Below, one piece after another: positions 1 to 55,166 of a DNA stretch of 64,000 nt. The notes under the pieces are model-generated. The model did not search any database. It was given only the letters and a program-made list of their open reading frames with translations, and was not told the origin of the DNA. The DNA lies in the NCBI RefSeq assembly GCF_001677475.2, contig NZ_CP012497.1; one strand, 5' to 3'. Each line of letters opens with the position of its first letter. Position 1 is the stretch's first letter. The position numbers were made by a program, and so were the translations under genes. The stretch is from Escherichia coli (GTDB taxonomy: Bacteria > Pseudomonadota > Gammaproteobacteria > Enterobacterales > Enterobacteriaceae).

Positions 1-772
1 CTATCATGTAGGGTTCGTCTGCATGGCGACGCTGCCATTCCGCGACAAAATCTTCGTAGGCTTCTGACATAGGTCTGCCATTCGCCTGGCGATACTGCGC
101 CAGAAATTCAGGTAGCCAGCTAATTTCCTCCGGTTTTATTTCGTCGCGTTTTCCTGGTGCCAGTAACAGCAGCCGTTCTGCGGCGTTCTGTGACTGGTTG
201 TACTTCAGCACCCACTGATAAAGTGGGTCACGACTGATGGTGCGATTAGCACCACGTTTTGCATTGGCGTTAACTGCGGCCTGTTGCAGGCGTTCCGGTA
301 GTTCACCTTTACGGGCTTTTTCGACAAGAAAGTTAATGGCTTTCAGTCGCCCGAGATCACCGTCTCTTTCCAGCCTCAGCACTTCCACCACCAGCGCAGA
401 TCTTGCTTCAGATACCCGGCGCTGGTTTTCGGTCAACGCGTTCAGGCGTTCTTCCATCAGTTGTGGAGAACCGCGATATGCTTCGATTGCCTGGACTGCA
501 TCAGGATTACGAGCCTTCCTGGTAACAACCTTCACTTCAGAAACATTGTTCTCTGTAGCCACCAGCTGTTCCACATAGCGTTCACGCAGTGCCCTTTGAG
601 TTACCTCTGGCAGGCAATCGATGTGGTATTCAATGGCTTTTGTGCCTTCACGTCGGCGGCTAACGTCATTGCGCCCATGGGCAAAACGCTGTAACGCCTG
701 ACGGATACCTTTTGCAGTGACTGGCATTCCTGGTACGCCGAGCAAGTCGTTTGCGGTAACGTACAACTGCAT
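1..772 (-). CDS. Mu-like transposase A, 5' part (gene continues past window start)
   Basis: Minus-strand ORF with ATG at 770-772 (MQLYVTANDLLGVPGMPVTAKG...), open to the window edge with no stop; N-terminus resembles the MuA/Mu-repressor winged-helix DNA-binding domain; starts 1 nt after the ner stop. Confidence 0.65.
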   Translation of the reverse strand, partial: MQLYVTANDLLGVPGMPVTAKGIRQALQRFAHGRNDVSRRREGTKAIEYHIDCLPEVTQRALRERYVEQLVATENNVSEVKVVTRKARNPDAVQAIEAYRGSPQLMEERLNALTENQRRVSEARSALVVEVLRLERDGDLGRLKAINFLVEKARKGELPERLQQAAVNANAKRGANRTISRDPLYQWVLKYNQSQNAAERLLLLAPGKRDEIKPEEISWLPEFLAQYRQANGRPMSEAYEDFVAEWQRRHADEPYMI

Positions 773-773
773 A

Positions 774-1025
774 TCACGACGCCTTCCTGATAAATCCATC
801 GTTACGATACCGGCTGGGCCAGATGATTTCTGGCGGTACACCTATAGCGTCAGAAATTACGCGTTCGTATTTTTTGTTCGGTGTACGAACTACCGCTTTC
901 AGTGAATCCTGAGCATAACCAGCATGGAGTGAAAGCTCCCGGAAGGAAGACCACCCATTATCTTTGAGCGCCAGCTGAATCTTTAGCGAAGGCCAATCGC
1001 GGTCGCGATCTTCTCTTTGTCTCAT
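774..1025 (-). CDS. ner: Ner-like DNA-binding regulator (Ner/Nlp family)
   Basis: 83 aa; C-terminal ...IGVPPEIIWPSRY matches the Ner/Nlp signature; immediately upstream of the transposase. Confidence 0.75.
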   Translation of the reverse strand: MRQREDRDRDWPSLKIQLALKDNGWSSFRELSLHAGYAQDSLKAVVRTPNKKYERVISDAIGVPPEIIWPSRYRNDGFIRKAS

Positions 1026-1216
1026 CTTTCCTTTACCCTACAAAGTTACCCGCGCGGATATCCGGTCGGATATCCGTATGGATAAAATCGTAGATCACAA
1101 AAAGTACCATTACAAGGTATTTTTTGTATTTTGTTTGTATTTTTGAATTTTCCTTTCTATTCAATTAGATAGATGGAAAAGAACCTTTATGCAGAAAAAT
1201 ACCTAGAGGTACTTTT
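1026..1216. promoter_or_regulatory. Divergent early control region between ner and repressor
   Basis: 190-bp AT-rich intergenic region with repeated TTTTGTATT-like motifs between divergent genes; the position matches the Mu c/ner operator-promoter region. Confidence 0.35.
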
Positions 1217-1732
1217 ATGGAGCAAGCAAAAGAACCTATCGTAGAGCGCATGGCATATCTTATTAGACGGTATCCATCAAGAAGTGCTGCAGCCAGAGCC
1301 TGGGGAATAAATATCAATACGTTACAAAGCTATTTTAAAAAGGGAAACACACCAGAACCTCGAGAAAGCATATTGGTACGCATTGCAGAAAGTGAAGGTG
1401 TTAGTCTTGAATGGTTAAAAACAGGCAACGGAAACCCACCAAAAATACAAGAATCACAAAGCAGTTTAAGTCAAGGCGATCAGCTAACTGAGATGCTCTC
1501 GTTTCTTACTAGTGAAGAACGAGAGGCTCTTACCAGCATGTTCGCAAGGAAAGGCGTTGAAACGGTACTACGCTTATTGGACAAAGATACTCAAGAACTG
1601 CTGCAACTAGAGGGTCGTAAACGCCTGGCTGCATTGATGTTGGTTGATATGTCCGACGAGCAAGTCAGAGAGATTTTGGAAGAAATTGAAGCAAGTATTC
1701 TCTCACACAGCGTAAAAGCAAAGGCAGGTTGA
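1217..1732 (+). CDS. Putative prophage repressor (HTH)
   Basis: 171 aa, divergent from ner; N-terminal HTH-like segment (AAARAWGININTLQSYFKKGNTP) and C-terminal coiled-coil-like region. Confidence 0.5.
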   Translation: MEQAKEPIVERMAYLIRRYPSRSAAARAWGININTLQSYFKKGNTPEPRESILVRIAESEGVSLEWLKTGNGNPPKIQESQSSLSQGDQLTEMLSFLTSEEREALTSMFARKGVETVLRLLDKDTQELLQLEGRKRLAALMLVDMSDEQVREILEEIEASILSHSVKAKAG

Positions 1733-1832
1733 CTTAATTGACCTGCTTTTGGAGCTTCTTTAAAATTCGCTTTAAAAGGAGATGCGGGCATTTTTGAAGG
1801 GGCTTAAAAGGCTTGAAATAACACGGCGCGCC

Positions 1833-2267
<435 letters not shown>

Positions 2268-20101: not shown

Positions 20102-20406
20102 TCAATGCATTGCAGGCCGAAGTCGGTGAGATTACTCAGCCAGAACCTGCCCCGGCACAGCCTGATGAAACGGTTAGCGAAGCAGATGCAGAGGCTAATA
20201 AAGCCATTGAATATCTCAATAACGTGATGGATATGCAAAGCACTGACATGGCGGAGATCCGTAACGCCCGGGGTAATGTCCGGGAAGCGATTGCAGCCCT
20301 TCAGGCTGCCGGGCGTTTTGAGGAAAACGAAGAGCTGGTTAATGGCGCTGCTCGCCACCTGGCTGATCTGCTGGTAGCAATCCAGAAAGCGGGGGTAGCG
20401 GCATGA
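20086..20406 (+). CDS. Small acidic protein (ddrA region)
   Basis: 106 aa ORF overlapping the darA-like stop. Confidence 0.3.
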   Translation: MVQSMINALQAEVGEITQPEPAPAQPDETVSEADAEANKAIEYLNNVMDMQSTDMAEIRNARGNVREAIAALQAAGRFEENEELVNGAARHLADLLVAIQKAGVAA

Positions 20407-20768
20407 CACTATCAGCTATTGAGTTAATGGACCTCAGCGACAAGTTGGATTCTCTGATGTCCAAAGCTGCTACCGCGAGTGGCATGGAGTTGCTGGATAT
20501 CAGCGATGAAATTGACCAGATCATGCAACAGATGGGGTACGGCGCGTCCGGCGGTGGTAGTGGCGAGGAAAAACAACCTTCGGAACATGATGGTGTGCCA
20601 AAACTGGTTGCTGATTTCCTGGCTGATAAATTCGTCGATCAGAGCACAGATGCATTTATCGGTACCTTGCAGGACTTGAGTCAATATGTTGGCACATACA
20701 TCGACCTGGACCAGGTTAAACAGCACACGGCGGCATGGATAGCCGCCAACATTGAAGAGGCAGCATAA
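20403..20768 (+). CDS. Small acidic protein (ddrA region)
   Basis: 121 aa, 4-bp overlap with the upstream ORF. Confidence 0.3.
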   Translation: MTLSAIELMDLSDKLDSLMSKAATASGMELLDISDEIDQIMQQMGYGASGGGSGEEKQPSEHDGVPKLVADFLADKFVDQSTDAFIGTLQDLSQYVGTYIDLDQVKQHTAAWIAANIEEAA

Positions 20769-30731: not shown

Positions 30732-33462
<2,731 letters not shown>

Positions 33463-33528: not shown

Positions 33529-36500
33529 ATGAACAAGCTATCTATGGGGGTGTTTCGCTGTTCAAGTGTCAGCGAAATATTGAAATACATTAGGGCAATA
33601 ACATCTCACCGAGCGCCGATTAAATACGGCGTGGAAAAGGTGGAAGGCAAAAGCTATGACCGACTGCGCCGGGAGGCGAATCAGAAGGCGATAGATTTGC
33701 TTAATTCGCTGGTGGACGGCGCGACACTGACAGATGAACAGCGCCAGATCCTGGCTGGGTACACCGGTGAAGGCGGCATTGGCGGGTCCGTCTCCGAATA
33801 TTACACACCAAAGCCGATCGCTGAAGGTGTCTGGGAGATCATGAAGCTCTACGGCGCGGACGTAGGTAACACTCTGGAACCATCGGCGGGAACTGGCGTT
33901 TTTAATGAGACAAAACCGGTTGGTACGGTGATGACCGCGACTGAGATCAGCAGTGTTTCCGGTCGTATAAACCAGTTGTTACACCCGGAAGACAGCGTAC
34001 AGATTTCCCCGTTCGAACAGCTGGCTATAAGCACACCTAACGATTCATTCGACCATGTTGTGGGTAACGTTCCGTTCGGCGGTCGTGATAACACACGCAA
34101 CATCGATAAGCCTTACGCAGAAGAAACGGACATGGGTTCTTACTTCATGCTCCGCATGCTGGACAAGATAAAGCCAGGCGGATTCATGTGCGTGATTGTG
34201 CCGCCGTCCATTGTTTCAGGTTCAAACATGAAGCGGTTACGCCTGCGCCTATCACGGAAAGCTGAATTTCTTGGTGCCCACCGCTTGCCTACCGGTACTT
34301 TTGACGCAAACGGGACCAGTACAGTCGTTGATGTGGTGCTGATGCGCAAACATCCGGCAGAGATGGCTGAGAAAATCCCCCTGGTGGATGAAAGCACTCT
34401 TGAATCGGCAAATGTGCTTTGGCCAACGTTTATTTCTGGCAAGTGGTTTGAAAAGGATGGCCGCCGGTTTGTTCATGGTACCCAGGAAAAGGGCTTCCAG
34501 GGGCGTATTGAGGTTCGTGCCGACGGGCAGATTGATAACCAGGCTCTTAAAGCGAAGCTGATTCATCGTTTCGAAAGTCGTATCGACTGGTCTTTGCTCG
34601 ATATGGCTGAACCGTCACCGACCGCAGATGTTGTTGATGAAGGGGAAATGCGCCTGATTAATGGCGTATGGCAAAAATATGCTGGTGGTCGCTGGATTGA
34701 AGCTGATGCTGGTAAGGAGCTTAAGATTGATGCTGCCAGTTATGGCGCGGATAGCTGGGAGGCTCTTCAGCGTAACCTGACTACAACAGAAGGCCGTCTC
34801 GGTATGACATTTACCCAGATGGCAAATGTCCGCGATAAGTACACCACATCAATCAGCGACGATATGGTGCAGCTGGTGGACTGGATTAACAGCCAGCCTG
34901 AAAAATACCGTGAACGCTTGTATCGCGGGGCGATGATTGGCCGGATGTTAATTGAATATCAGGATATGAAGGCCGCCGGGCATAGTGCTGAACAAATCGA
35001 ACAGAAGCGCCTTTCTCTGGTATCCCGTTTGCAGGCAGAGATTGACCGTTTTGGTAACCCCGGTCGCGGTCCGATAGCTAAATTATCGGGAAGCGGTGCG
35101 CGCGCCTGGTTTGCTTTCCGTGGGGCAATTAAGCTGGATGGCACTATTTCTGACGAGCTGACAGGAAAGCTGGTTACGCATGATTCCAGCGCCAGTTATG
35201 ACTCCACCAGCTATCAGGACACCCTGCGTTATCTCTATAGCGATCTTACCCGCGATCCAATCCAGCTCGATGATTTCCGCCTTGCGTTTACCGGCGAACT
35301 GCCAGCCAGTGATGAAGAGTTGCTTAATTTATTGGCCAGCACCCCTGGTATTGCGGTTTCACCGTATGGCGGGATTGTTCCGTTCGCCCGCGCCACCAGC
35401 GGCGACATTAACGAGATAGTGGCTCCAAAACAGGAATTCCTTGCCACACTCCCCGACGGTCCAGTAAAGAACAACGTCCTTAATCAGCTGGCAGCGATCG
35501 AAGAGAAGCGCATCAAGACGCCAGCAGAGAATATCCGCTTTAAGCTCAATAGCCGTTGGTTCGACCGCTCCGTCATTCTGGAGTTTTTGCAGAAAAACGG
35601 CTATCCGGATCTGCGCTATGTGCAGTCAGTGCAGCTGGAAGGCGACGAAATGGTTTCTGACACCTATCACGGTGGTGATGGTCTGTTCGTCGGGCACCGA
35701 TACGGTGTCGTCCAGCGCAAGGATAAAGAAACAGGCGAGATCCGCTACGAGTGGGACCGTAAATCAGGTGAAAACGCGACCGGGTTCCCGGCACAGCTGG
35801 AAAAGTATCTCAATGGTGCGCGTATCGGTGGCAAAGATAGCGCGACGGCGAACGGCTACCGCGAGCAGATGGCACTGCTTGAGGACCAGTTCAATAAGTG
35901 GATCAAGACGCACGATCGCTACGATGAGCTGGTTGCCAAATACAACGATGTGTTCAATAGCAATATCCCGTATGAACACTCTGGCGATCCGCTTGGGTTG
36001 AAGGGATTAAGCGGTAAGCGTCAGCCATTTGATTACCAGAATAGCGAGGTGCGCCGACTGTCCGAAGATGGGCGCGGCATCCTGGGCTTCGGCACCGGGC
36101 TGGGTAAAACCACGACCGCGCTGGCACTTGAGGCGTTCAACTATGAGAACGGTCGCTCCACCCGTACTGCGTATGTAGTGCCTAAATCAGTGCTGGAAAA
36201 CTGGTATTACGAAGCAAAAGAATTCCTGAGTGAAGAGGCATTCAGTAACTACCTGTTCGTCGGTCTTGATGTGCTGATGGATGGCGATCAGATTCGCCAG
36301 GTGCCGGTGCTCGATGAGAACGGTAAACCTGTTCTTGGTGCTGATGGCACTCCAGTTATGCGCGATGCTCTTAAGCTGGCAGATGAAGCCACTATCACGG
36401 CGCGGATGAATGCGATCCCGCACTCAAATTACCGTGCAGTCGTGTTTACCAAAGAACAATACGCCCGCATTCCGCTACGTGATGACACCGTAGATGAGCA

Positions 36501-46173: not shown

Positions 46174-46734
46174 TTAGTGCATGATGTTTGCCATTTCATA
46201 GGCGTCAGCCAGCAACTCCATCTCTGACTTGTTCAGCAAGGTGAATTCTTTCTTGCCTCCAACCACACCATCGGCATGAACAGGGACCAGCCAGGGGTAT
46301 TTTTCTCTTACTTCAGCCGGAGCTGCATGCTGGTGGTGCCATCTACAAAGTGGCAATTGCTTTTTATGACAACCCGGCGCGGTACGACCGGCGATATGGT
46401 GCAGAGACACCTCATTAGATATTACTCCATGCATATAGCAGGCAATGCAGGGGAGAGCGCCAAGAGCATTGGCGATGCGCCGTTCCTCCGCCGTTGGTGT
46501 TCTCCCCTTCAAGCCACGAGATTTTATTTTTACCGCGCTTTTCCGCGTTTTGCTGGCTGGTGGGCGCTCTTTCTGTTTAGCGATACGGCGGTCGATAGTA
46601 TCTCGCATTTTCTGATATTGAGATTCTCGCCAGACCGGATCAGCCAACTTCTCCCGTTGCCGAGCGATCGCTCGTTCTCTGGCTGCCTTCTGCCACTTGC
46701 GGCACTGTTCAATTTTTTGTTCGATTGTTTTCAT
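46174..46734 (-). CDS. ref: Ref recombination enhancement function (HNH-type nuclease)
   Basis: 186 aa, MKTIEQKIEQCRKWQKAARERAIARQREKLADP...CRWHHQHAAP; recognised as P1 Ref. Confidence 0.85.
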   Translation of the reverse strand: MKTIEQKIEQCRKWQKAARERAIARQREKLADPVWRESQYQKMRDTIDRRIAKQKERPPASKTRKSAVKIKSRGLKGRTPTAEERRIANALGALPCIACYMHGVISNEVSLHHIAGRTAPGCHKKQLPLCRWHHQHAAPAEVREKYPWLVPVHADGVVGGKKEFTLLNKSEMELLADAYEMANIMH

Positions 46735-47343: not shown

Positions 47344-48375
47344 CTAATCGCCATCTTCCAGCAGGCGCACCATTGCCCCTGTTTCACTATCCAGGTTACG
47401 GATATAGTTCATGACAATATTTACGTTGGTCCAGCCACCAGCTTGCATGATCTCCGGTATTGAAACTCCGGCACGGGCCATATCTCGCGCGGCTCCGACA
47501 CGGGCACTGTGTCCAGACCAGGCCAGGTACCTCTGGCCAGAGTCATCCTTAGCCCCGTAAATCAATCGGTGAGTTGCTTCAAAAATCCCTTCCAGGGCGC
47601 GAGTTGATAGCTGGCTGGTGGGTGATGGCGAGGCAACACCATTTTTTCTGACCCGGCAAAACAAGTAGTTATTCGGATCATCAGCCACACCAGAGACAGA
47701 AATCCATCGCTCGACCAGTTTAGTTACCCCCAGGCTAAGTGCCTTCTCTACACCTGCGGTGCTAACCAGCGTTTTCGTTCTGCCAATATGGATTAACATT
47801 CTCCCACCGTCAGTACGTGAGATATCTTTAACCCTGATCCTGGCAATTTCGGCTATACGTAACAGGGTGTTATAAGCAATCCCCAGAAATGCCAGATTAC
47901 GTATATCCTGGCAGCGATCGCTATTTTCCATGAGTGAACGAACCTGGTCGAAATCAGTGCGTTCGAACGCTAGTGCCTGTTTTGCACGTTCACCGGCATC
48001 AACGTTTTCTTTTCGGATCCGCCGCATAACCAGTGAAACAGCATTGCTGTCACTTGGTCGCGGCAGCCCGGACCGACGATGAAGCATGTTTAGCTGGCCC
48101 AAATGTTGCTGGATAGTTTTTACTGCCAGACCGCGCGCCTGAAGATATAGAAGATAATCGCGAACATCTTCAGGTTCTGCGGGAAACCATTTCCGGTTAT
48201 TCAACTTGCACCATGCCGCCCATGACCGGCAAACGGACAGAAGCATTTTCCAGGTATGCTCAGAAAACGCCTGGCGATCCCTGAACATATCCATCAGGTT
48301 CTTGCGAACCTCATCACTCGTTGCATCGACCGGCAATGCAGGCAAATTTTGGTGAACGGTTAACGATTTAGTCAT
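47344..48375 (-). CDS. cre: Cre tyrosine recombinase
   Basis: 343 aa, ...LTVHQNLPALPVDATSDEVRKNLMDMFRDRQAFSEHTWKMLLSVCRSWAAWCKLNNRKWFPAEPEDVRDYLLYLQARGLAVKTIQQHLGQLNMLHRRSGLP...; matches Cre apart from N-terminal residues. Confidence 0.95.
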   Translation of the reverse strand: MTKSLTVHQNLPALPVDATSDEVRKNLMDMFRDRQAFSEHTWKMLLSVCRSWAAWCKLNNRKWFPAEPEDVRDYLLYLQARGLAVKTIQQHLGQLNMLHRRSGLPRPSDSNAVSLVMRRIRKENVDAGERAKQALAFERTDFDQVRSLMENSDRCQDIRNLAFLGIAYNTLLRIAEIARIRVKDISRTDGGRMLIHIGRTKTLVSTAGVEKALSLGVTKLVERWISVSGVADDPNNYLFCRVRKNGVASPSPTSQLSTRALEGIFEATHRLIYGAKDDSGQRYLAWSGHSARVGAARDMARAGVSIPEIMQAGGWTNVNIVMNYIRNLDSETGAMVRLLEDGD

Positions 48376-48767
48376 TTATTATGCGTAATTTTAACAGTTA
48401 AGCCTTGTTCATGAAGTATCTCATCAATAATTCGAATCACATCCCCAGGTAGATCATCGTTCTCGAAATATCTGTGATCGGGGATTTCTACAGTGATTGG
48501 AGTTGCTGCTTCATGCAAAATCCGAACAGTCTTTTTTTCTTCTTTGCATGCTGAATATTCAGCCTCTTCGATATCTTTCCAGCTTGCACCATCAAATTGC
48601 TGGTAAACCCGAGTGTACTGCATGCGGTTTCGCTTTACTTCTTCTGCTAACTCCCAAATTGCAACGGCCATAGCACGTTCATTTTCACTCGTTCCAGGGT
48701 TAGCAGCTTTTTGTTTTGCGTCCTTAAGTAAGGCGTTTACCTTGGCATCCGTCAGGCTATTAAACAT
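48372..48767 (-). CDS. Hypothetical protein upstream of cre
   Basis: 131 aa; its stop overlaps the cre start by 4 bp. Confidence 0.4.
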   Translation of the reverse strand: MFNSLTDAKVNALLKDAKQKAANPGTSENERAMAVAIWELAEEVKRNRMQYTRVYQQFDGASWKDIEEAEYSACKEEKKTVRILHEAATPITVEIPDHRYFENDDLPGDVIRIIDEILHEQGLTVKITHNK

Positions 48768-48786
48768 GCATCACCTCATGATCAAG

Positions 48787-49008
48787 TTAAATTATTGTTT
48801 TCAGCAGAGTGTACAGGATTGGATCTGCCTTTACCTGTTTATGGTTCTCGTCATAGAAACGCCAGCGACCGCGCGTGCGTTCTATTTTCTCTTCACCGCG
48901 AGATAATGACAGTTGGTAACTATCACGCTCAAACCCTTTTGCCCGCCAGTAACCACGGTTTTTCTCAAGCTCAAGATGAGTGGACACTTTAGCAGCTGAA
49001 TATCCCAT
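48787..49008 (-). CDS. Hypothetical small basic protein
   Basis: 73-aa ORF between loxP and cre. Confidence 0.25.
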   Translation of the reverse strand: MGYSAAKVSTHLELEKNRGYWRAKGFERDSYQLSLSRGEEKIERTRGRWRFYDENHKQVKADPILYTLLKTII

Positions 49009-49197
49009 TTTTCACCTCTGATTGATTGGTGGTGCTAAGTGCGCTACGCGAAATCTGGAGCACTAACACTGCCAACATTTCGCAGATTTTACGTAGCGCA
49101 ACCTTGATCAAATGATCAAGTGATCACTATTTGACCTGATAAGGTATTGAACTGTATGGATTTACAGGTAAATTGATCATGTTCAATAACCCTTAAG

Positions 49198-49231
49198 ATA
49201 ACTTCGTATAATGTATGCTATACGAAGTTAT
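49198..49231. other. loxP site
   Basis: Exact ATAACTTCGTATA-ATGTATGC-TATACGAAGTTAT (13-bp inverted repeats, 8-bp spacer). Confidence 0.95.
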
Positions 49232-49276
49232 TAGGTCTGAAGAGGAGTTTACGTCCAGCTGCGCATAAAAAACAAG

Positions 49277-49291
49277 AATTATTAGAGCAAT
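49277..49291. promoter_or_regulatory. C1 operator (minus orientation)
   Basis: Reverse complement ATTGCTCTAATAATT. Confidence 0.55.
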
Positions 49292-49357
49292 ATATTTTGA
49301 GAGATAAATCCCACTCCACCAGCCAAAAACTGGATTGTTTTTCATAGTTGTTTGACA

Positions 49358-49373
49358 ATTGCTCTAATAAATT
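49358..49373. promoter_or_regulatory. C1 operator (plus orientation), upstream of coi-c1
   Basis: ATTGCTCTAATAAATT, near-exact consensus. Confidence 0.6.
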
Positions 49374-49612
49374 ATAGTTTTGCCACCGTTTCGTAATACG
49401 ACTTTGGATTCACTATTTAATGTGTCTTCAGCGTTGTAGAGCGGCTCAGAAGGAAATGAGCAAACAGGGAAACCTTATACAACGGCATTACAGCTATGCA
49501 TTGCTCATCTTACACACAGCGCAATGTTGATAGATAACCCCAGCATGGAACATGGGTGAAACAGTAGGTCAGAGCTTCAGGCTCTGTGTTGTCAATACAG
49601 TGAGGCATAATT

Positions 49613-49822
49613 ATGGCTTTCATTCCACCAACCATCGACGATGTTAGACATTGCTCTAACGCTTTATCTGTAGACCCCGCCGAAACCGACGCTGCTCGCG
49701 CCATTGCTGAACACTACTCAAAGATATCCAATCAGGAGTACCGCATCACCCAAGACGACCTGGATGACCTCACTGACACAATCGAATATCTCATGGCAAC
49801 TAACCAGTTAGACTCACAATAA
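49613..49822 (+). CDS. coi: Coi-like (C1 inactivator), by size and position
   Basis: 69 aa immediately upstream of c1. Confidence 0.55.
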   Translation: MAFIPPTIDDVRHCSNALSVDPAETDAARAIAEHYSKISNQEYRITQDDLDDLTDTIEYLMATNQLDSQ

Positions 49823-49932: not shown

Positions 49933-50784
49933 ATGATAAATTATGTCTACGGCGAACAACTGTACCAGGAGTTCGTCAGCTTCAGGGATCTCTTTCTAAA
50001 AAAAGCTGTTGCACGCGCCCAACACGTTGATGCCGCCAGCGACGGTCGTCCTGTACGCCCGGTTGTCGTTCTACCGTTCAAAGAAACAGACAGCATTCAG
50101 GCTGAAATTGATAAATGGACTTTAATGGCGCGGGAACTGGAACAGTACCCAGACCTCAATATCCCAAAGACTATTTTATATCCTGTGCCTAACATCCTTC
50201 GCGGTGTACGTAAGGTTACGACTTATCAGACAGAAGCTGTGAACAGCGTCAACATGACCGCTGGCCGCATTATTCATCTGATTGATAAGGACATTCGCAT
50301 CCAAAAAAGCGCGGGGATCAATGAGCACAGTGCGAAATACATAGAGAACCTGGAAGCAACAAAAGAGCTAATGAAGCAGTACCCAGAGGATGAAAAATTC
50401 CGTATGCGCGTACACGGCTTTAGCGAAACAATGCTGCGCGTCCACTACATTTCCAGTAGCCCTAACTACAATGATGGTAAATCAGTTAGTTACCATGTGC
50501 CACTGTGTGGCGTGTTTATCTGCGATGAAACTCTCCGTGATGGAATTATCATCAACGGTGAATTCGAAAAAGCAAAATTTAGCCTTTATGACTCCATAGA
50601 ACCGATCATCTGCGACCGCTGGCCGCAAGCAAAAATATATCGCCTGGCAGATATTGAAAATGTAAAAAAACAAATTGCCATCACTCGCGAAGAGAAAAAG
50701 GTTAAGTCAGCCGCATCAGTTACGCGCAGCCGTAAAACTAAGAAGGGGCAGCCAGTAAACGACAACCCCGAAAGCGCGCAATAA
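49933..50784 (+). CDS. c1: C1 immunity repressor
   Basis: 283 aa, MINYVYGEQLYQEFVSFRDLFLKKAVARAQ...; matching operators throughout the window. Confidence 0.85.
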   Translation: MINYVYGEQLYQEFVSFRDLFLKKAVARAQHVDAASDGRPVRPVVVLPFKETDSIQAEIDKWTLMARELEQYPDLNIPKTILYPVPNILRGVRKVTTYQTEAVNSVNMTAGRIIHLIDKDIRIQKSAGINEHSAKYIENLEATKELMKQYPEDEKFRMRVHGFSETMLRVHYISSSPNYNDGKSVSYHVPLCGVFICDETLRDGIIINGEFEKAKFSLYDSIEPIICDRWPQAKIYRLADIENVKKQIAITREEKKVKSAASVTRSRKTKKGQPVNDNPESAQ

Positions 50785-50816
50785 ATTATGCCCGGCATCA
50801 ACCGGGCATTCTTCCA

Positions 50817-51932
50817 TTATTCAGCCGCCACCGGTTTTAACAAGCCAGCATCGAGCAGTTTACGCGTCAACCACTGTTGGCCTTTCCCCGTTAATTGAGG
50901 CGTCAGCCGTATCTGATAGCCATCTTCATCATCCAGCACCACTTCTCTCACTGTGAAATATCCGGCGTTTATGTACTGCTGAAACGGTACATTTTTACGT
51001 CCGCCGGACGCAATCAGGATGCCGTTCTCCCGTAACCAGGCAAACAGCGCATTTTGCTTAAGTCCAACAACCTTTGCAAAATTCCCAATCAGGATCCCCT
51101 TAGCCACTGATACCCGGTCGGCAAAATCGACTTTAGGGGCTGCGGCCACCAGCTGCTGATTTAGCTGGTGGGTTTTCTGTTCCAGAAGTTGCTTTTGTTC
51201 AGCCAGCTCGGCAGCCAGGCGCAGAGCTTCTGGAAGCGTCTGGGGGATTGCGATCGGTTGCTGTTCTTTTTGTCGGAAGTAGCTGTCTTCCAGTTTTTCA
51301 AAGAATGCCCATGCCTGATCTGTTTCGAGCATTTTTGCGTGACGGGCAGCTCCTCGTTCCGTCCAGAGGATGAGTGAGCGGGCTTTAGGAGAGATGGGAT
51401 TTTGTGAGTTACTTAAAGTCACCCGCAAATTGTTCAAATCATCTCCAATAACTTTATAGAAATGCTTGCCTTCACAAAAACGTTCAGCATTACGGGAAAA
51501 GTTCTTCTTGATGTTATCCGCATCGGTCCCATACCCCTTAGCAAGGATCTTGGTTGTCACTACACGCACTCCCAGCCATTCCAGAACGGGAATTTCATCA
51601 GACTGATTCTGAACAACCACCAGCTCTGACTCCTGAACTGAAGGTGCATGAACTTTTTCTGATTTAACGTTAGTTGCTTTCATTCTGTGTGCCTCCTTGC
51701 GTGTTTCGGCTGCGACGGTTGCGTAATTCAGATGCCCCTGTTCGAGCAGGTATTCGCGGATATCAGACAGCAGGATGCGGTGAACCGCGTTCTTGTCCTT
51801 TCTCCGGTAAAGTTGTTTGGTGATCATGAAGTAGTTGGCTATAACGCCTGGTATATCCCTGGTACTGATACAAGCAGTGTGCTGTTCAATTGCCTCGATC
51901 ATCTCTTCACGGGTGACTAATGACGTTCTCAT
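50817..51932 (-). CDS. ant1: Antirepressor Ant1-like (KilA-C / antirepressor C-terminal domain)
   Basis: 371 aa from MRTSLVTREEM...; its start overlaps the icd stop (ATGA); C-terminal DFADRVSVAKGILIGNFAKVVGLKQNALFAWLRENGIL. Confidence 0.6.
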   Translation of the reverse strand: MRTSLVTREEMIEAIEQHTACISTRDIPGVIANYFMITKQLYRRKDKNAVHRILLSDIREYLLEQGHLNYATVAAETRKEAHRMKATNVKSEKVHAPSVQESELVVVQNQSDEIPVLEWLGVRVVTTKILAKGYGTDADNIKKNFSRNAERFCEGKHFYKVIGDDLNNLRVTLSNSQNPISPKARSLILWTERGAARHAKMLETDQAWAFFEKLEDSYFRQKEQQPIAIPQTLPEALRLAAELAEQKQLLEQKTHQLNQQLVAAAPKVDFADRVSVAKGILIGNFAKVVGLKQNALFAWLRENGILIASGGRKNVPFQQYINAGYFTVREVVLDDEDGYQIRLTPQLTGKGQQWLTRKLLDAGLLKPVAAE

Positions 51933-52150
51933 AGTCCCTCCTGAGCACAAGCGTTTACAGGGGGGCACCAGTAACTGAGAGAATTGCGCAAATCGGTAGA
52001 AAAACGGGCGGAGAAAATACAGGGAGCATCCGGAAGCTGAGAACGTGCCTCATCTTCTGTTGGTGCGATAACGAAGTGATAGTGACGTTTCTGGCAGGAG
52101 TAAAAGCGCCAGATGAATTCAGGGTGAGCTGGGGTAGGGGTAGTAGCCAT
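51929..52150 (-). CDS. icd: Icd-like small protein
   Basis: 73 aa (MATTPTPAHPEFIWRFY...), strong SD AAGGAGG 8 nt upstream; translationally coupled to ant. Confidence 0.55.
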   Translation of the reverse strand: MATTPTPAHPEFIWRFYSCQKRHYHFVIAPTEDEARSQLPDAPCIFSARFSTDLRNSLSYWCPPVNACAQEGL

Positions 52151-52159
52151 AATGGCAGC

Positions 52160-52468
52160 CTCCTTAGACGTTGGTATGTAACCACCGCAGAAGAGACCAA
52201 TCTTGCTGGCGGTGGACTGTACGGAGTTGGCCTTACTGGCGTCCAAGGTAACCAGCCTACCCGAAGGTAGCCCCATACAGCCCACCATTGTAGAGGTGTG
52301 CGTGTACGCCGATACAAAAAAAGACGCGAGCGGCGTCTGTATCGCCTTAGACTTAAGCGGGAGGCCAATCCCGGCACCCGTTTTAATGAGGTGCCTGATC
52401 AGCATAAACCGAAAATGCCTCAAGGCGCAAGAGGTCAGGTTCAATGTAACATCGGTAGTTAAAAAACA
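52160..52468 (-). ncRNA. Candidate c4-like antisense RNA / structured leader of the icd-ant operon
   Basis: About 300 bp non-coding region upstream of icd, with a terminator-like hairpin and a repeat of the icd RBS-region sequence (CCTTAGAC). Confidence 0.3.
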
Positions 52469-52469
52469 C

Positions 52470-52486
52470 AATTTATTAGAGCAAAT
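52470..52486. promoter_or_regulatory. C1 operator variant upstream of the icd-ant region
   Basis: Reverse complement ATTTGCTCTAATAAATT. Confidence 0.45.
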
Positions 52487-52488
52487 AT

Positions 52489-53973
52489 TCATTCATTAAG
52501 CCATGCCAGAGCTTCATCAACCTGCGCTTCGTCTTCGACGCTAAGCACTTCATCCTGGGGAACATAATCCGCCAGCATAGCGAAACAATATGTATCCCAA
52601 TGGTCTGGTGAGTGCAGGTTGAGTTTTTTCTTCATATCCTCCTTACTCATCACCTTCCATTGACCTGCGGAGTTAATCCCTACAGGGATTTTCGACGCTT
52701 CCTCAATAGTTTCATTACCCTTATCCAGTCTCATACGACCAGATTTTACGGCCTCTGCGGCTTGAACGTTGGCATAAGCACGTTTATCAAAGTACAGGCT
52801 CTTATCTTCACGGCTATGCATCTTTTTACCCCAGCGTATACGCTGTACGGTAATACCATAATACTCGTACATCAGATCCGCCGTTGCTTTACCCAGGCCA
52901 TCGCCGTCTATCGCTATGGTGATATTGGGGAATCGCTCAGGATTACATTCTGCGAAAATTTTGGCAGCAAGCTGCGTTTCTGTAACGTCTGTGTATTCCA
53001 GCATTCGATAGTTGATTACACGGCGTTTATTTCGCTGGCCGGACACCATCATGATATTGATAACGGACTTATCCCGTCCCGTACCACCAGCAACGTCCAC
53101 ACATGCAAGCCAGCCCCATCCTTTGGCAATCTTGACTTTCCGCCGCGTTGCACGTTCAACCTCATCACGTCCAAGAAGGAAGCCATCCTGTGATTTAGGG
53201 AATAGGCCGCGTACCTTAATCATGTACATAGGGTTATCACGCCCGCCGTACTCCGCCAGCTTCATTTTGATAAATGCTGGCGTTACCAGCGGTGATTCCT
53301 CACTGTTAAGCGTGATCGCCGTATAAACGCCATCAGGGTTACCAGGACGCTTGGCCAGTTTATGGTGAGTATCGTAGAAATAGCCGCTTGGGCGTGTAGG
53401 CTGTGACAGCAATAAGATGCGGTTATCCTGTCCGGTAAGAGCACCGGTGATGATACCGAAAGCTCTATCACTGACACCGGAGGCTTCATCGATAATATAC
53501 AGAAGATGGTCTGCGTGTTCACCAGCGAGAGCTTCTTCACTTCCCAGACGAAAGCCCTTCGGTACTACAGTCCATACACCTTTACCAGTAACCTCATAGA
53601 AAGCGGTTTCTGTCAGAACAAAATAATCAGCAAGCCATGGAAAACGGCTGGTGGCCGTAGCCCAGTTTATCTTGATGTACTTGAATATACCGGTCATTAC
53701 CTGCTGAATTTTGTTCGCAACGATAATGGCGCGGGCACCGGGATACATGATTATGAACAACATGATCATGATAGAAGTCATGTCTGATTTCCCGGTACCG
53801 TGACCAGACGAAACAGATGTCTTGCTACCCTGTTCCTGCACAGACTCAATAATCAGATCCTGCTGCCAGGTAGGTGTTTTGCCGAACAAAACATCTGCCG
53901 CCGCAATCCAGTCATAACGATATAGCGCCACCAGCTCGCGCCAACGCGGATCCGTTACGCAACTTCTGGCCAT
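52489..53973 (-). CDS. pacB: Terminase large subunit PacB
   Basis: 494 aa; Walker A HGTGKSD, Walker B IIDEAS, C-terminal nuclease-like domain. Confidence 0.9.
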
Positions 53974-55166
53974 TAATCATCATCCCCGTATAGCTTGCGG
54001 GTAACTTCTTCGTCTTCCTCCTCGTCTTCGTCCAGGTCTTGTTCCAGCCATGGTTCGTTTGATACACCTTCAGTATCAACATCTCCATAACCGCCTGTAT
54101 CAACGATATCGGCGATTTCTTCCCTACGTTGCTCAATCCACAATGCGGCATCGGCGCGGCGGTTGGCGGCCCGTTCTCGCGCAACTTTGTCCAGATCTTC
54201 AAGAGAAGGGCCACCGACGGCAGTTTGCCTTTCCTCATCATCGGTATTGGTCTTAGGAGCACGCAGATCGGCTTTGATTTGCTCCAGCATCAGGGGCGGC
54301 ACTTTCCCACCATGCGCCTCGATGAATTCAGCTGCTTCCAGCACTGACCAGTTATTTTCACGCTTTCGTTCGTATGCCAGCTTAACAATGCCAGCTTGCC
54401 CCATAGATAAAGCGTGCTTTTCCGCCTCCCGGCTTTCTTTTCGATAGTTATTCCGGATGCTGTAAATGGTGTTGATCAGACTGCTTATCTGCGCGGAACA
54501 GCTGTTTAGCATGCTCGCGATACGGTATTCAGGCGGAGTACCTTCATCATCGTCTTTTTGCTGATCGCGCATTTCCTGCACCAGGCGAATACACGTATCC
54601 CTGGCGTTCTCCAGCATAATGAGATGAGAAAGAGACTTTTCCAGAAGAGTGGTTTCCAGAACATCGGCCCCGGACCGACGCAACATAGCGCGCGCGGCCT
54701 TCCGCGCTTCAACGTTATCTATCAGGTAATCGCCAGCTTCGAATTCAAAGCGTTCACCATCATCATCCAGGGTGTCGCGTTCCAGGCGATCACGTAAGGT
54801 CCGGTGGGCACGGGTGATCACGTCATGATCATCAGAACGATCATTTATGCGCTTATTTTGGCGCTTCGCATTCTCGACTGCGGCACTGACAACGGCATTA
54901 ACTCTTTGTTTTTTCGCTATTCCAGCCGCAATGTGATCACCTGCATGTTGATCATTAGAGTGATCAATGATCATGCTTTTTAGTGGCTTCCTGACTGGCT
55001 TATTTGGCTTGCGGCTGTCCGCTGTCCTGGTGTCTTCTTTGAAGGCACGGAGATAACGACGTGCGGTATTAGGGTTAAGATTAAACTCGGCGGCATACTG
55101 TGCGATGGTGTAACCACCATCTCGCGCCAGGCGAGCAAAATTCTTCTTGTGATCGTCCCAGGTCAC
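53973..55166 (-). CDS. pacA: Terminase small subunit PacA (contains pac site)
   Basis: 397 aa, acidic C-terminus; hexamer repeats inside the 5' third of the gene. Confidence 0.9.
54787..54975. other. pac packaging site (two clusters of TGATCA/G / GATC hexamers)
   Basis: GATC hexamers at 54787, 54815, 54826, 54838 and TGATCA at 54934, 54949, 54961, 54968, separated by about 90 bp. Confidence 0.75.

Follow-up and report, generated by a model that had tools for sequence, protein, structure and literature searches.

A probable additional ImmI-type module between pacB and c1 of a P1-like phage-plasmid from Escherichia coli

We examined a 64,000-nucleotide stretch of Escherichia coli DNA (contig NZ_CP012497.1 of assembly GCF_001677475.2; the whole stretch is called the window here), which belongs to a P1-like phage-plasmid and runs in reversed orientation relative to the coordinates of P1. 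In this element, the genes pacB and c1 are separated by a module that resembles the c4-icd-ant immunity unit of P1, known as ImmI. We conclude that this region is very probably an intact additional module of the ImmI type, and that it most likely works as ImmI does in P1. Its parts are present and intact, and the antisense pairing between the small RNA C4 and its targets is present and co-varies across relatives. For the processing of the RNA, Rho termination, and the interaction of the antirepressor Ant with C1, we infer by homology that they would take place here as well.

Results

The module and its genes

In reference P1 (NC_005856), pacB ends at 93206 and c1 starts at 93231, with a gap of just 24 bp between them. 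P1 ImmI lies at 48140-49731, between simA and kilA-repL and adjoining simABC, and its annotated parts are Oc4, P2c4/P1c4, a1, b1, c4, a2, b2, icd, and ant1/ant2. An earlier note on this DNA, made from the sequence alone, had placed P1 ImmI beside the sim genes and far from ImmC, and the reference map agrees. In the window, 1,704 bp (52488-50785) stand in place of the 24-bp gap. The flanking DNA contains pacA (53973-55166) and pacB (52489-53973) on the minus strand and c1 (49933-50784) on the plus strand. By blastn, this DNA has 92-96% identity to P1, and P1 homology stops exactly at the stop codons of pacB and c1. The module boundaries were checked for insertion scars and direct repeats, and none were seen. 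The module is complete on the minus strand, on which all of the module features described below lie, and extends from a C1 operator at 52485 through a terminator at 50788. The stop codons of ant (50817) and c1 (50784) are convergent with 32 bp between them; the earlier note had put this distance at about 30 bp.

The first protein-coding gene of the module, icd (51929..52150), encodes a 73-amino-acid protein resembling the host cell division inhibitor Icd, and has the Shine-Dalgarno sequence AAGGAGG 8 nt upstream. Its product is 78% identical to P1 Icd and matches both NCBIfam NF033153 (phage_ICD_like; 49.8 bits, cut-off 25) and phrog_1426 (E-value 7e-43). The start codon of the second gene, ant1 (50817..51932), overlaps the icd stop codon in the sequence ATGA. 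The encoded antirepressor of 371 amino acids matches phrog_63, "anti-repressor Ant" (E-value 1e-133), and contains the Pfam domains ORF6N (residues 117-201) and ANT/KilAC (residues 259-360). Overall it is 54% identical to P1 Ant1, but this similarity is unevenly spread: residues 1-83 and a C-terminal stretch of ~130 residues are conserved, whereas the central domain has been swapped. An Ant2-like internal start is also present, in the form of an in-frame ATG at 51683 (codon 84) with its own Shine-Dalgarno sequence, AAGGAGG. The internal methionine lies at residue 84 as in P1, in a nearly unchanged Shine-Dalgarno context (AAGGAGGCACA(C/T)AGAATGA), and this Ant2-type start is conserved in 59 related loci. 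The earlier note had described both a 73-residue icd-like reading frame with a strong Shine-Dalgarno sequence and an overlapping antirepressor-like gene of 371 residues, and had stated that its interpretation would fall if neither product resembled Icd or Ant on a search. Both genes are borne out, and both products resemble the P1 proteins.

Operator, promoters, and terminator

Directly after the pacB stop codon we found a C1 operator, TTTGCTCTAATAAATTG (52469..52485), which matches the consensus ATTGCTCTAATAAATTT at 15 of 17 positions (2 mismatches). The operator of P1, Oc4, occupies the equivalent position ahead of c4, and the operator sequence is identical in phage RCS47 and in p94_0962-2 (NZ_CP074794), the closest complete relative, whose module is 96.3% identical to that of the window; the best matches to the module reach this same value. 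The window contains 11 sites that resemble a C1 operator with no more than 3 mismatches, where 0.31 would be expected. The earlier note had placed the operator at 52470-52486, one base off from the site that we observe (52485-52469). By its position, the operator appears to lie at the promoter of the operon, where it would overlap a -35-like hexamer.

Two putative promoters can be proposed from their positions. The first, probably C1-repressible (52443..52471), would consist of a -35 hexamer TTGTGT that overlaps the operator (52471-52466), a 17-nt spacer, and an extended -10 element, TGT-TACATT (52448-52443); its placement is equivalent to that of P1 P2c4/P51a relative to Oc4. The second (52401..52430) would have a -35 hexamer TTGCGC, an 18-nt spacer, and a -10 hexamer TATGCT, ending 6 nt before the 5' end of the leader RNA described below. 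In Stx phage P13374 (TTGACT/17/TATATT) and in the Salmonella prophage Gifsy-1 (TTGACA/17/TATATT), the same place relative to the 5' end of the leader is taken by strong consensus promoters. At the other end of the module, the 32-bp gap between ant and c1 contains a hairpin terminator (50788..50809) with a 9-bp stem that includes 6 G-C pairs and is followed by AATTTATT.

Leader RNA and C4 antisense RNA

From the operator to the icd start codon there are 318 nt, which the earlier note had described as about 300 bp of hairpin-rich, non-coding sequence. This description stands, and the interval contains two RNAs that match Rfam families above their gathering scores. The first is a leader RNA of the isrK type (52317..52394, 78 nt; RF01394, model positions 1-77, 60.8 bits, E-value 1.5e-10, gathering score 50) with a predicted intrinsic terminator (stem 52338-52322, followed by a U-run). 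This agrees with the IsrK locus, where a 77-nt RNA with three hairpins, the last of them an intrinsic terminator, lies upstream of an antirepressor gene. The fold of the leader alone is not significant (z -1.0). Two candidate target segments are found in the leader: a1, TTGGCCT (52368-52362), and b1, GTCTAAGG (52352-52345).

The second RNA is specified by a c4 antisense RNA gene (52205..52292), which matches RF01695 over its full length (1-87) with 75.9 bits (E-value 4.7e-13, gathering score 45). Alignment to the annotated C4 of P1 predicts a mature RNA spanning approximately 52286-52208. Its minimum free energy is -41.6 kcal/mol (z -3.5), and none of 200 shuffled sequences folded equally well, so the c4 search and RNA folding that the earlier note had called for both point to a C4. 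The loop of C4 carries the segment b', CCUUGGAC (52248-52241), and a single-stranded segment carries a', AGGCCAA (52233-52227). The downstream target region (52159..52200) includes a2, TTGGTCT (52200-52194), and b2, again GTCTAAGG (52169-52162), which overlaps the icd Shine-Dalgarno sequence AAGGAGG (52165-52159). In RNA terms, b' is complementary to GUCUAAGG, which is present both in the leader (b1) and over the icd Shine-Dalgarno sequence (b2), while a' is complementary to UUGGCCU (a1) and UUGGUCU (a2). The earlier note had noticed that the sequence around the icd ribosome binding site is duplicated in the leader. The repeated octamer accounts for this, and what the note quoted, CCTTAGAC (about 52346 and 52160), is the complement of the octamer on the plus strand.

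The segment from a2 to the icd start (52140-52204) also folds on itself, with a2 GGUCUCUU pairing with the icd Shine-Dalgarno region AAGGAGGC (-20.6 kcal/mol, z -2.5). As modeled, this local hairpin could mask the ribosome site independently of C4.

Covariation of C4 with both copies of its targets

We drew 79 loci that encode close relatives of Icd from IMG/VR, about 60 of which have the order pacB-icd-ant-c1. The leader alignment contains 23 sequences, 22 of them distinct, and includes RCS47 and one Stx phage. Across the 22 distinct leaders, the C4 fold together with the a1:a' and b1:b' helices forms standard pairs in 924 of 924 cells, and 19 of the 42 pairs have changed on both sides. Within C4 itself, none of the 27 intramolecular pairs is lost in any relative, and 11 of them have changed on both sides; in the target helices, 8 of 15 pairs have changed on both sides, four per helix. 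The covariation score was 0.41 compared to 0.16 in shuffled alignments, and 0 of 500 shuffles reached 0.41, a count that is not to be read as a probability because the aligned leaders are related by descent. When the partners were slid by 1-3 columns, only 29-47% of cells formed pairs. The second copy of the targets behaves in the same way: the a2:a' and b2:b' helices are 100% paired in the 22 distinct sequences, with four pairs in each changed on both sides, and with slid partners only 25-49% of cells pair. Because the slid controls are low and because C4 and both of its target copies change together, these data are a strong argument that the interaction between C4 and its targets is under selection.

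The leaders at the pacB-c1 site can be sorted by b' and a' into five combinations, in every one of which the two copies of the targets are altered to match. The combination in the window differs from both the P1 type and the P7 type. In the window type, the pairing of C4 with b1 and b2 includes an internal G.U (CCUUGGAC versus GUCUAAGG), and its pairing with a2 includes another G.U. These wobbles are kept in 6 of 6 distinct sequences of the window type, while the other four types are purely Watson-Crick at those positions. Such wobbles could serve to set repression at a lower level, or could mark an intermediate stage in a change of specificity.

Distribution of the arrangement

Counted at coverage of at least 80% and 91-96% identity, the full pacB-module-c1 arrangement occurs in 267 of 724 matching plasmids in PLSDB and in 248 of 5,426 complete E. 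coli genomes, as well as in the phages RCS47, vB_EcoM-673R5, and JL22. P1, P7, and phiW39 have no module at pacB-c1. The earlier note had held that its suggestion of a rearrangement would fail if the order were conserved in P1; in spirit this applies, in that the order is a conserved one and not a rearrangement, though the conservation is seen in relatives of P1 and not in P1 itself. An insertion of ant at the pacB-c1 site in RCS47 and pTZ20_1P has already been noted (Venturini et al. 2019; PMC6906374). In the literature that we searched for multiple ImmI modules in P1-like plasmids, this one sentence was the only mention, with subscription papers (e.g. those on RCS47 and D6) lying outside of the search. 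RefSeq annotates icd-like and KilAC antirepressor genes at the pacB-c1 site, and labels the RNA region as a pseudogene for an "ash family protein". The module is thus a common accessory of about a third of P1-like plasmids that is already known, and is unusual only in comparison with reference P1.

Several IMG/VR loci show variants of the module at the pacB-c1 site. Two icd-ant units are present in tandem in locus L014 and in divergent orientation in L076, L017 has approximately 1.3 kb inserted between icd and ant, and the ant genes of L029 and L042 are mosaic.

Comparison with related systems

The ImmI operon of P1 and P7 (Oc4/Op51, P51a/b) shares its order of parts with the window module, including the 73-residue Icd, the ATGA overlap, and the Ant2 start at codon 84. 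Unlike it, the window module lies between pacB and c1 and not in the canonical order simABC - ImmI - kilA - repL, has a leader of the isrK type, different a and b segments, and a central Ant domain (ORF6N) that differs from that of P1, and is not followed by kilA-repL; no sim, kilA, or repL lies beside it. The insertion in RCS47 (FO818745/NC_042128) and pTZ20_1P corresponds to the window module in site and in gene set, and is likewise bounded by the stop codons of pacB and c1. RCS47 is 91.9% identical to the window over 1.9 kb. In these records, c4 and icd are unannotated or appear merely as "short hypothetical orfs". The C4 specificity of RCS47 also differs, with b' CCUUUGAC and a' GUCUCAA as opposed to CCUUGGAC and AGGCCAA in the window.

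Outside of P1-like elements, counterparts of the RNA cassette with approximately 80% identity stand upstream of Rha or antirepressor genes in over 150 lambdoid phages, both Stx-converting ones and others. The shared stretch starts no more than 1 nt from the leader 5' end and stops 9 nt into icd. In Stx phage P13374 (NC_018846), the layout a1 b1-C4-a2 b2 is the same as in the window, and homology extends through the first three codons. P13374 differs in its promoter (TTGACT/TATATT), in having no C1 operator, in its downstream gene, which is of the Rha family rather than icd-ant, and in its a and b segments. The operator/promoter segment upstream of the cassette is confined to P1-like elements, where it hardly varies. 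Because the cassette is homologous to those of lambdoid phages while the operator and promoter are specific to P1-like elements, the module looks like a portable RNA lock that may have been put under the control of C1. A proposed link to 24B_1, a microRNA-size RNA of Stx phages, was rejected, as 24B_1 maps to another locus, between lom and vb_24B_43.

The isrK-"orf45"-anrP region of Gifsy-1 in Salmonella resembles the window module in its isrK-type leader with a terminator, in its C4 RNA, and in having a2/b2 over the antirepressor gene's ribosome site, and its a1 (UUGGCGU) pairs with a' (ACGCCAA) in a manner like that seen in the window. Gifsy-1 differs in being a lambdoid prophage, in its strong constitutive promoter, in the absence of a C1 operator and of Icd, and in its antirepressor protein; the module in the window sits in a P1-like plasmid prophage rather than in a lambdoid context of this kind. 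In the Gifsy-1 sequence (NC_010392; our locus L090), an Rfam C4 match of 69 bits lies between isrK and STM2616/AnrP, at the place of "orf45" (34131-34316, minus strand). The published work on this region treated the C4 region as a 45-codon "orf45" in which nucleotides, and not amino acids, are conserved, and described a processed species of 80 nt, STnc1160, without mention of c4 (Hershko-Shalev et al. 2016; PMC4825925). Compensatory mutants, with the IsrK changes G28A and G31A paired as G28A/C162U and G31A/C159U, alter translation of the antirepressor (PMC4825925), and by our count of positions these published pairs fall exactly on a1:a' pairs. Because these mutants hit a1:a' and because IsrK acts in trans, the Gifsy-1 data support a real a1:a' pairing and a possible role of the leader as a decoy. 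Taken together, this comparison suggests that the IsrK system of Gifsy-1 is a member of the same C4 family.

The CI RNA of P4 and the CA RNA of N15 (the latter cited as reference 22 in PMC10732415) are further processed antisense immunity RNAs of the C4 type. These small RNAs are cut from the leader of the very operon they repress, and they control anti-immunity or antirepressor genes. They belong to other elements and have other targets, and are likened to C4 here by description only.

A Mu-like prophage end at the edge of the window

P1 homology in the window starts at 1981, which corresponds to P1 46296 and lies inside pmgC (P1 46010-46576). Positions 1-1981 are taken up by a Mu-like transposable prophage, represented by its left end and inserted in pmgC of the P1-like backbone. 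This end includes the C-terminus of MuA, which runs off the start of the window, a Ner/SfsB-like gene of 83 amino acids (774-1025, minus strand), a c-repressor-like gene of 171 amino acids (1217-1732, plus strand), and three TTATCTTGAA-type repeats (1831-1965), with the terminus reading ...GGTCA. The chromosome of E. coli FDAARGOS_943 has a Mu-like element with 90% identity in narI, and the Mu-like end (window 1-2000) had no match in PLSDB or in the phage collection. Because pmgC is interrupted by this prophage, the phage may be defective.

Discussion

How the module may work

The arrangement of its parts suggests the following sequence of events. In a lysogen, C1 bound to the operator over the -35 of the first promoter would damp transcription, and the second, weaker promoter would fire at the 5' end of the leader. 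Many transcripts would end at the leader terminator, giving an RNA of approximately 77 nt that bears a1 and b1, while transcripts that read through would contain c4, which would be excised as an RNA of approximately 79 nt. In P1, it is RNase P that excises C4. Through b' and a', C4 would pair with b2 and a2, and with b2 lying over the icd ribosome site, icd would go untranslated. No Ant1 or Ant2 would then be made, because ant is translationally coupled to icd through the ATGA overlap and the ribosome site of icd would be covered by C4. In P1, Rho-dependent termination inside the untranslated icd limits ant as well. Where there is no matching C4, for example upon entry into a cell with a resident prophage of other C4 types, Icd and Ant would both be made, and Ant would inactivate C1.

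One refinement is compatible with this mechanism: the terminated ~77-nt RNA bearing a1 and b1 could be a trans-acting decoy, titrating C4 and thereby switching on icd-ant. The leader ends in an intrinsic terminator and matches IsrK, and a1 and b1 co-vary with the C4 segments as strictly as a2 and b2 do. When IsrK was provided in trans in Gifsy-1, translation of the antirepressor rose ~140-fold, an activity that was lost with the a1 mutations G28A and G31A (PMC4825925). On the other hand, the a1 mutation G28A in cis derepressed Gifsy-1 (from 4 to 93 units), which is not what a simple decoy would predict, and the authors of that study invoke a switch between alternative structures instead (PMC4825925). 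We regard a decoy role as a possibility worth keeping, somewhat short of an even chance.

Several points weigh against our view that the module works like ImmI. The role of a1/b1 is unsettled and is the least certain step, as the a1 mutation in cis just described derepressed Gifsy-1 where tightening might have been looked for. Both proposed promoters are weak matches to the consensus, and neither was called by a consensus promoter scan. The internal G.U pairs with b1, b2, and a2 mean that repression may be weaker than in the other types. Finally, the central ORF6N domain differs from that of P1 Ant, and that C1 is the target of this Ant is assumed here.

Alternative explanations

The poor promoter matches, the G.U wobbles that the window type has in three of its four C4-target helices, and the shortened or interrupted ant genes of some relatives (L014, L017, L029, and L042) could also be expected of a decaying or silent duplicate, horizontally acquired and no longer functional. 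A silent duplicate fits poorly with two intact reading frames whose Shine-Dalgarno sequences, ATGA coupling, and Ant2 start are preserved, with C4-target pairing that is complete and co-varying, which implies selection on the interaction, and with a module that is conserved in hundreds of plasmids. We consider it improbable, and favor an intact module.

The earlier note had identified the region as a c4-icd-ant unit of the P1 type, duplicated antisense targets included, and had implied that P1 ImmI was rearranged. The identification holds, but the implied relocation, in which the canonical ImmI would have been translocated from beside sim/kilA into the pacB-c1 gap, is not supported. A few observations would be in line with relocation. 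Reference P1 has nothing in the gap; no second ImmI was found in the 64-kb window, where Rfam detects a single C4 and tblastn with Icd and Ant returned only the query locus; and P1 homology ends inside pmgC at window position 1981, so that the canonical ImmI site falls beyond the window edge, outside the DNA that could be inspected.

Several lines of evidence argue against relocation. First, the module has diverged from P1 ImmI: blastn matches are limited to the 3' end of ant (81%) and the 5' part of icd/ant (70%), the leader and c4 do not align, and Ant and Icd are 54% and 78% identical to their P1 counterparts. Second, the leader is of the isrK type, with a specificity that is neither P1-type nor P7-type. 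The window has no match to the c4-a1b1 family (RF03163) at the gathering score and matches isrK (RF01394) instead, while RF03163 does match the P1 leader and the canonical leader of RCS47. The two types of leader are probably equivalent in function, because isrK of Gifsy-1 overlaps an RF03163 match. Third, the order is conserved, with an insert of identical boundaries in hundreds of plasmids. Fourth, relatives carry the module alongside the canonical ImmI. RCS47 has a canonical c4-icd-ant1/2-kilA-repL in addition to its pacB-c1 module, and p94_0962-2 has three C4-icd-ant modules (the canonical one, one near cre that replaces ref in the RD-1 slot, and one at pacB-c1), all differing in a/b specificity and each with a C1 operator of its own. 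In the window, the RD-1 slot is occupied by ref of the P1 type (46174-46734). The near-cre module of p94_0962-2 has a bivalent (inverted-repeat) C1 operator; modules of this plasmid lie at 32005-32370 of our locus L087 and at 20250-20615 and 27330-27700 of L088. Relocation is largely refuted by these observations, and we give it very little credence. Judging by its sequence, we take the window module to be a diverged paralog with an antisense specificity of its own, and not P1 ImmI moved to a new place.

The least plausible alternative, that the ~300-bp leader encodes protein as part of a 187-amino-acid reading frame of the Ash family in frame with icd (52492-51929), has in its favor that the icd frame is open from 52492 in the window, that Pfam PF10554 (Phage_ASH) matches residues 35-126 (E-value 2.3e-10; 52115-52390, minus strand), and that the annotation pipeline PGAP places a pseudogene for an "ash family protein" on the equivalent stretch of p94_0962-2 (1309-1626 of our locus L086), but we reject it as having next to no chance of being right, since 15 of 23 aligned relatives have at least two stop codons in every frame (2-4 in the Ash frame), T-runs vary in length from 6 to 9 and indels of 9 and 11 nt occur among relatives, and substitutions track base pairing rather than codons, with two Rfam models accounting for the conservation. 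Because the Ash frame is broken by stops in these 15 relatives, the conserved entity is the RNA. The Phage_ASH family may itself have been modeled partly or wholly on an RNA gene.

Implications for P1-like elements

Beyond the window module, we tentatively suggest, as an idea that may well prove wrong, that P1-like elements run a combinatorial immunity code. They would carry up to three independent locks, each made of a C1 operator, C4, Icd, and Ant, at the canonical site, the RD-1 slot near cre, and pacB-c1. Each lock would have its own a/b specificity, with at least five at pacB-c1. In the pacB-c1 lock, the terminated leader of the IsrK type would serve in trans as a decoy for C4, and the Gifsy-1 IsrK/"orf45" region would then be a C4 antisense circuit that has gone unrecognized. 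We regard several little-described aspects as leads, not as findings: the orthogonal C4 locks that occur several to a plasmid, the five types at pacB-c1, the RNA genes with wrong annotations, and the connection with IsrK. Missing from public annotations are the c4 RNA with its leader (unannotated or labeled as a pseudo "ash" gene), the antisense specificity of the module with its five types at one site, and the capacity of one plasmid to carry three locks. These features bear on predicting superinfection immunity and cross-induction among P1-like plasmids with extended-spectrum beta-lactamase (ESBL) and mcr genes in Enterobacteriaceae. If such a code exists, the set of C4 RNAs that an element carries would decide which incoming relatives are silenced, and which residents are induced through unrepressed Ant.

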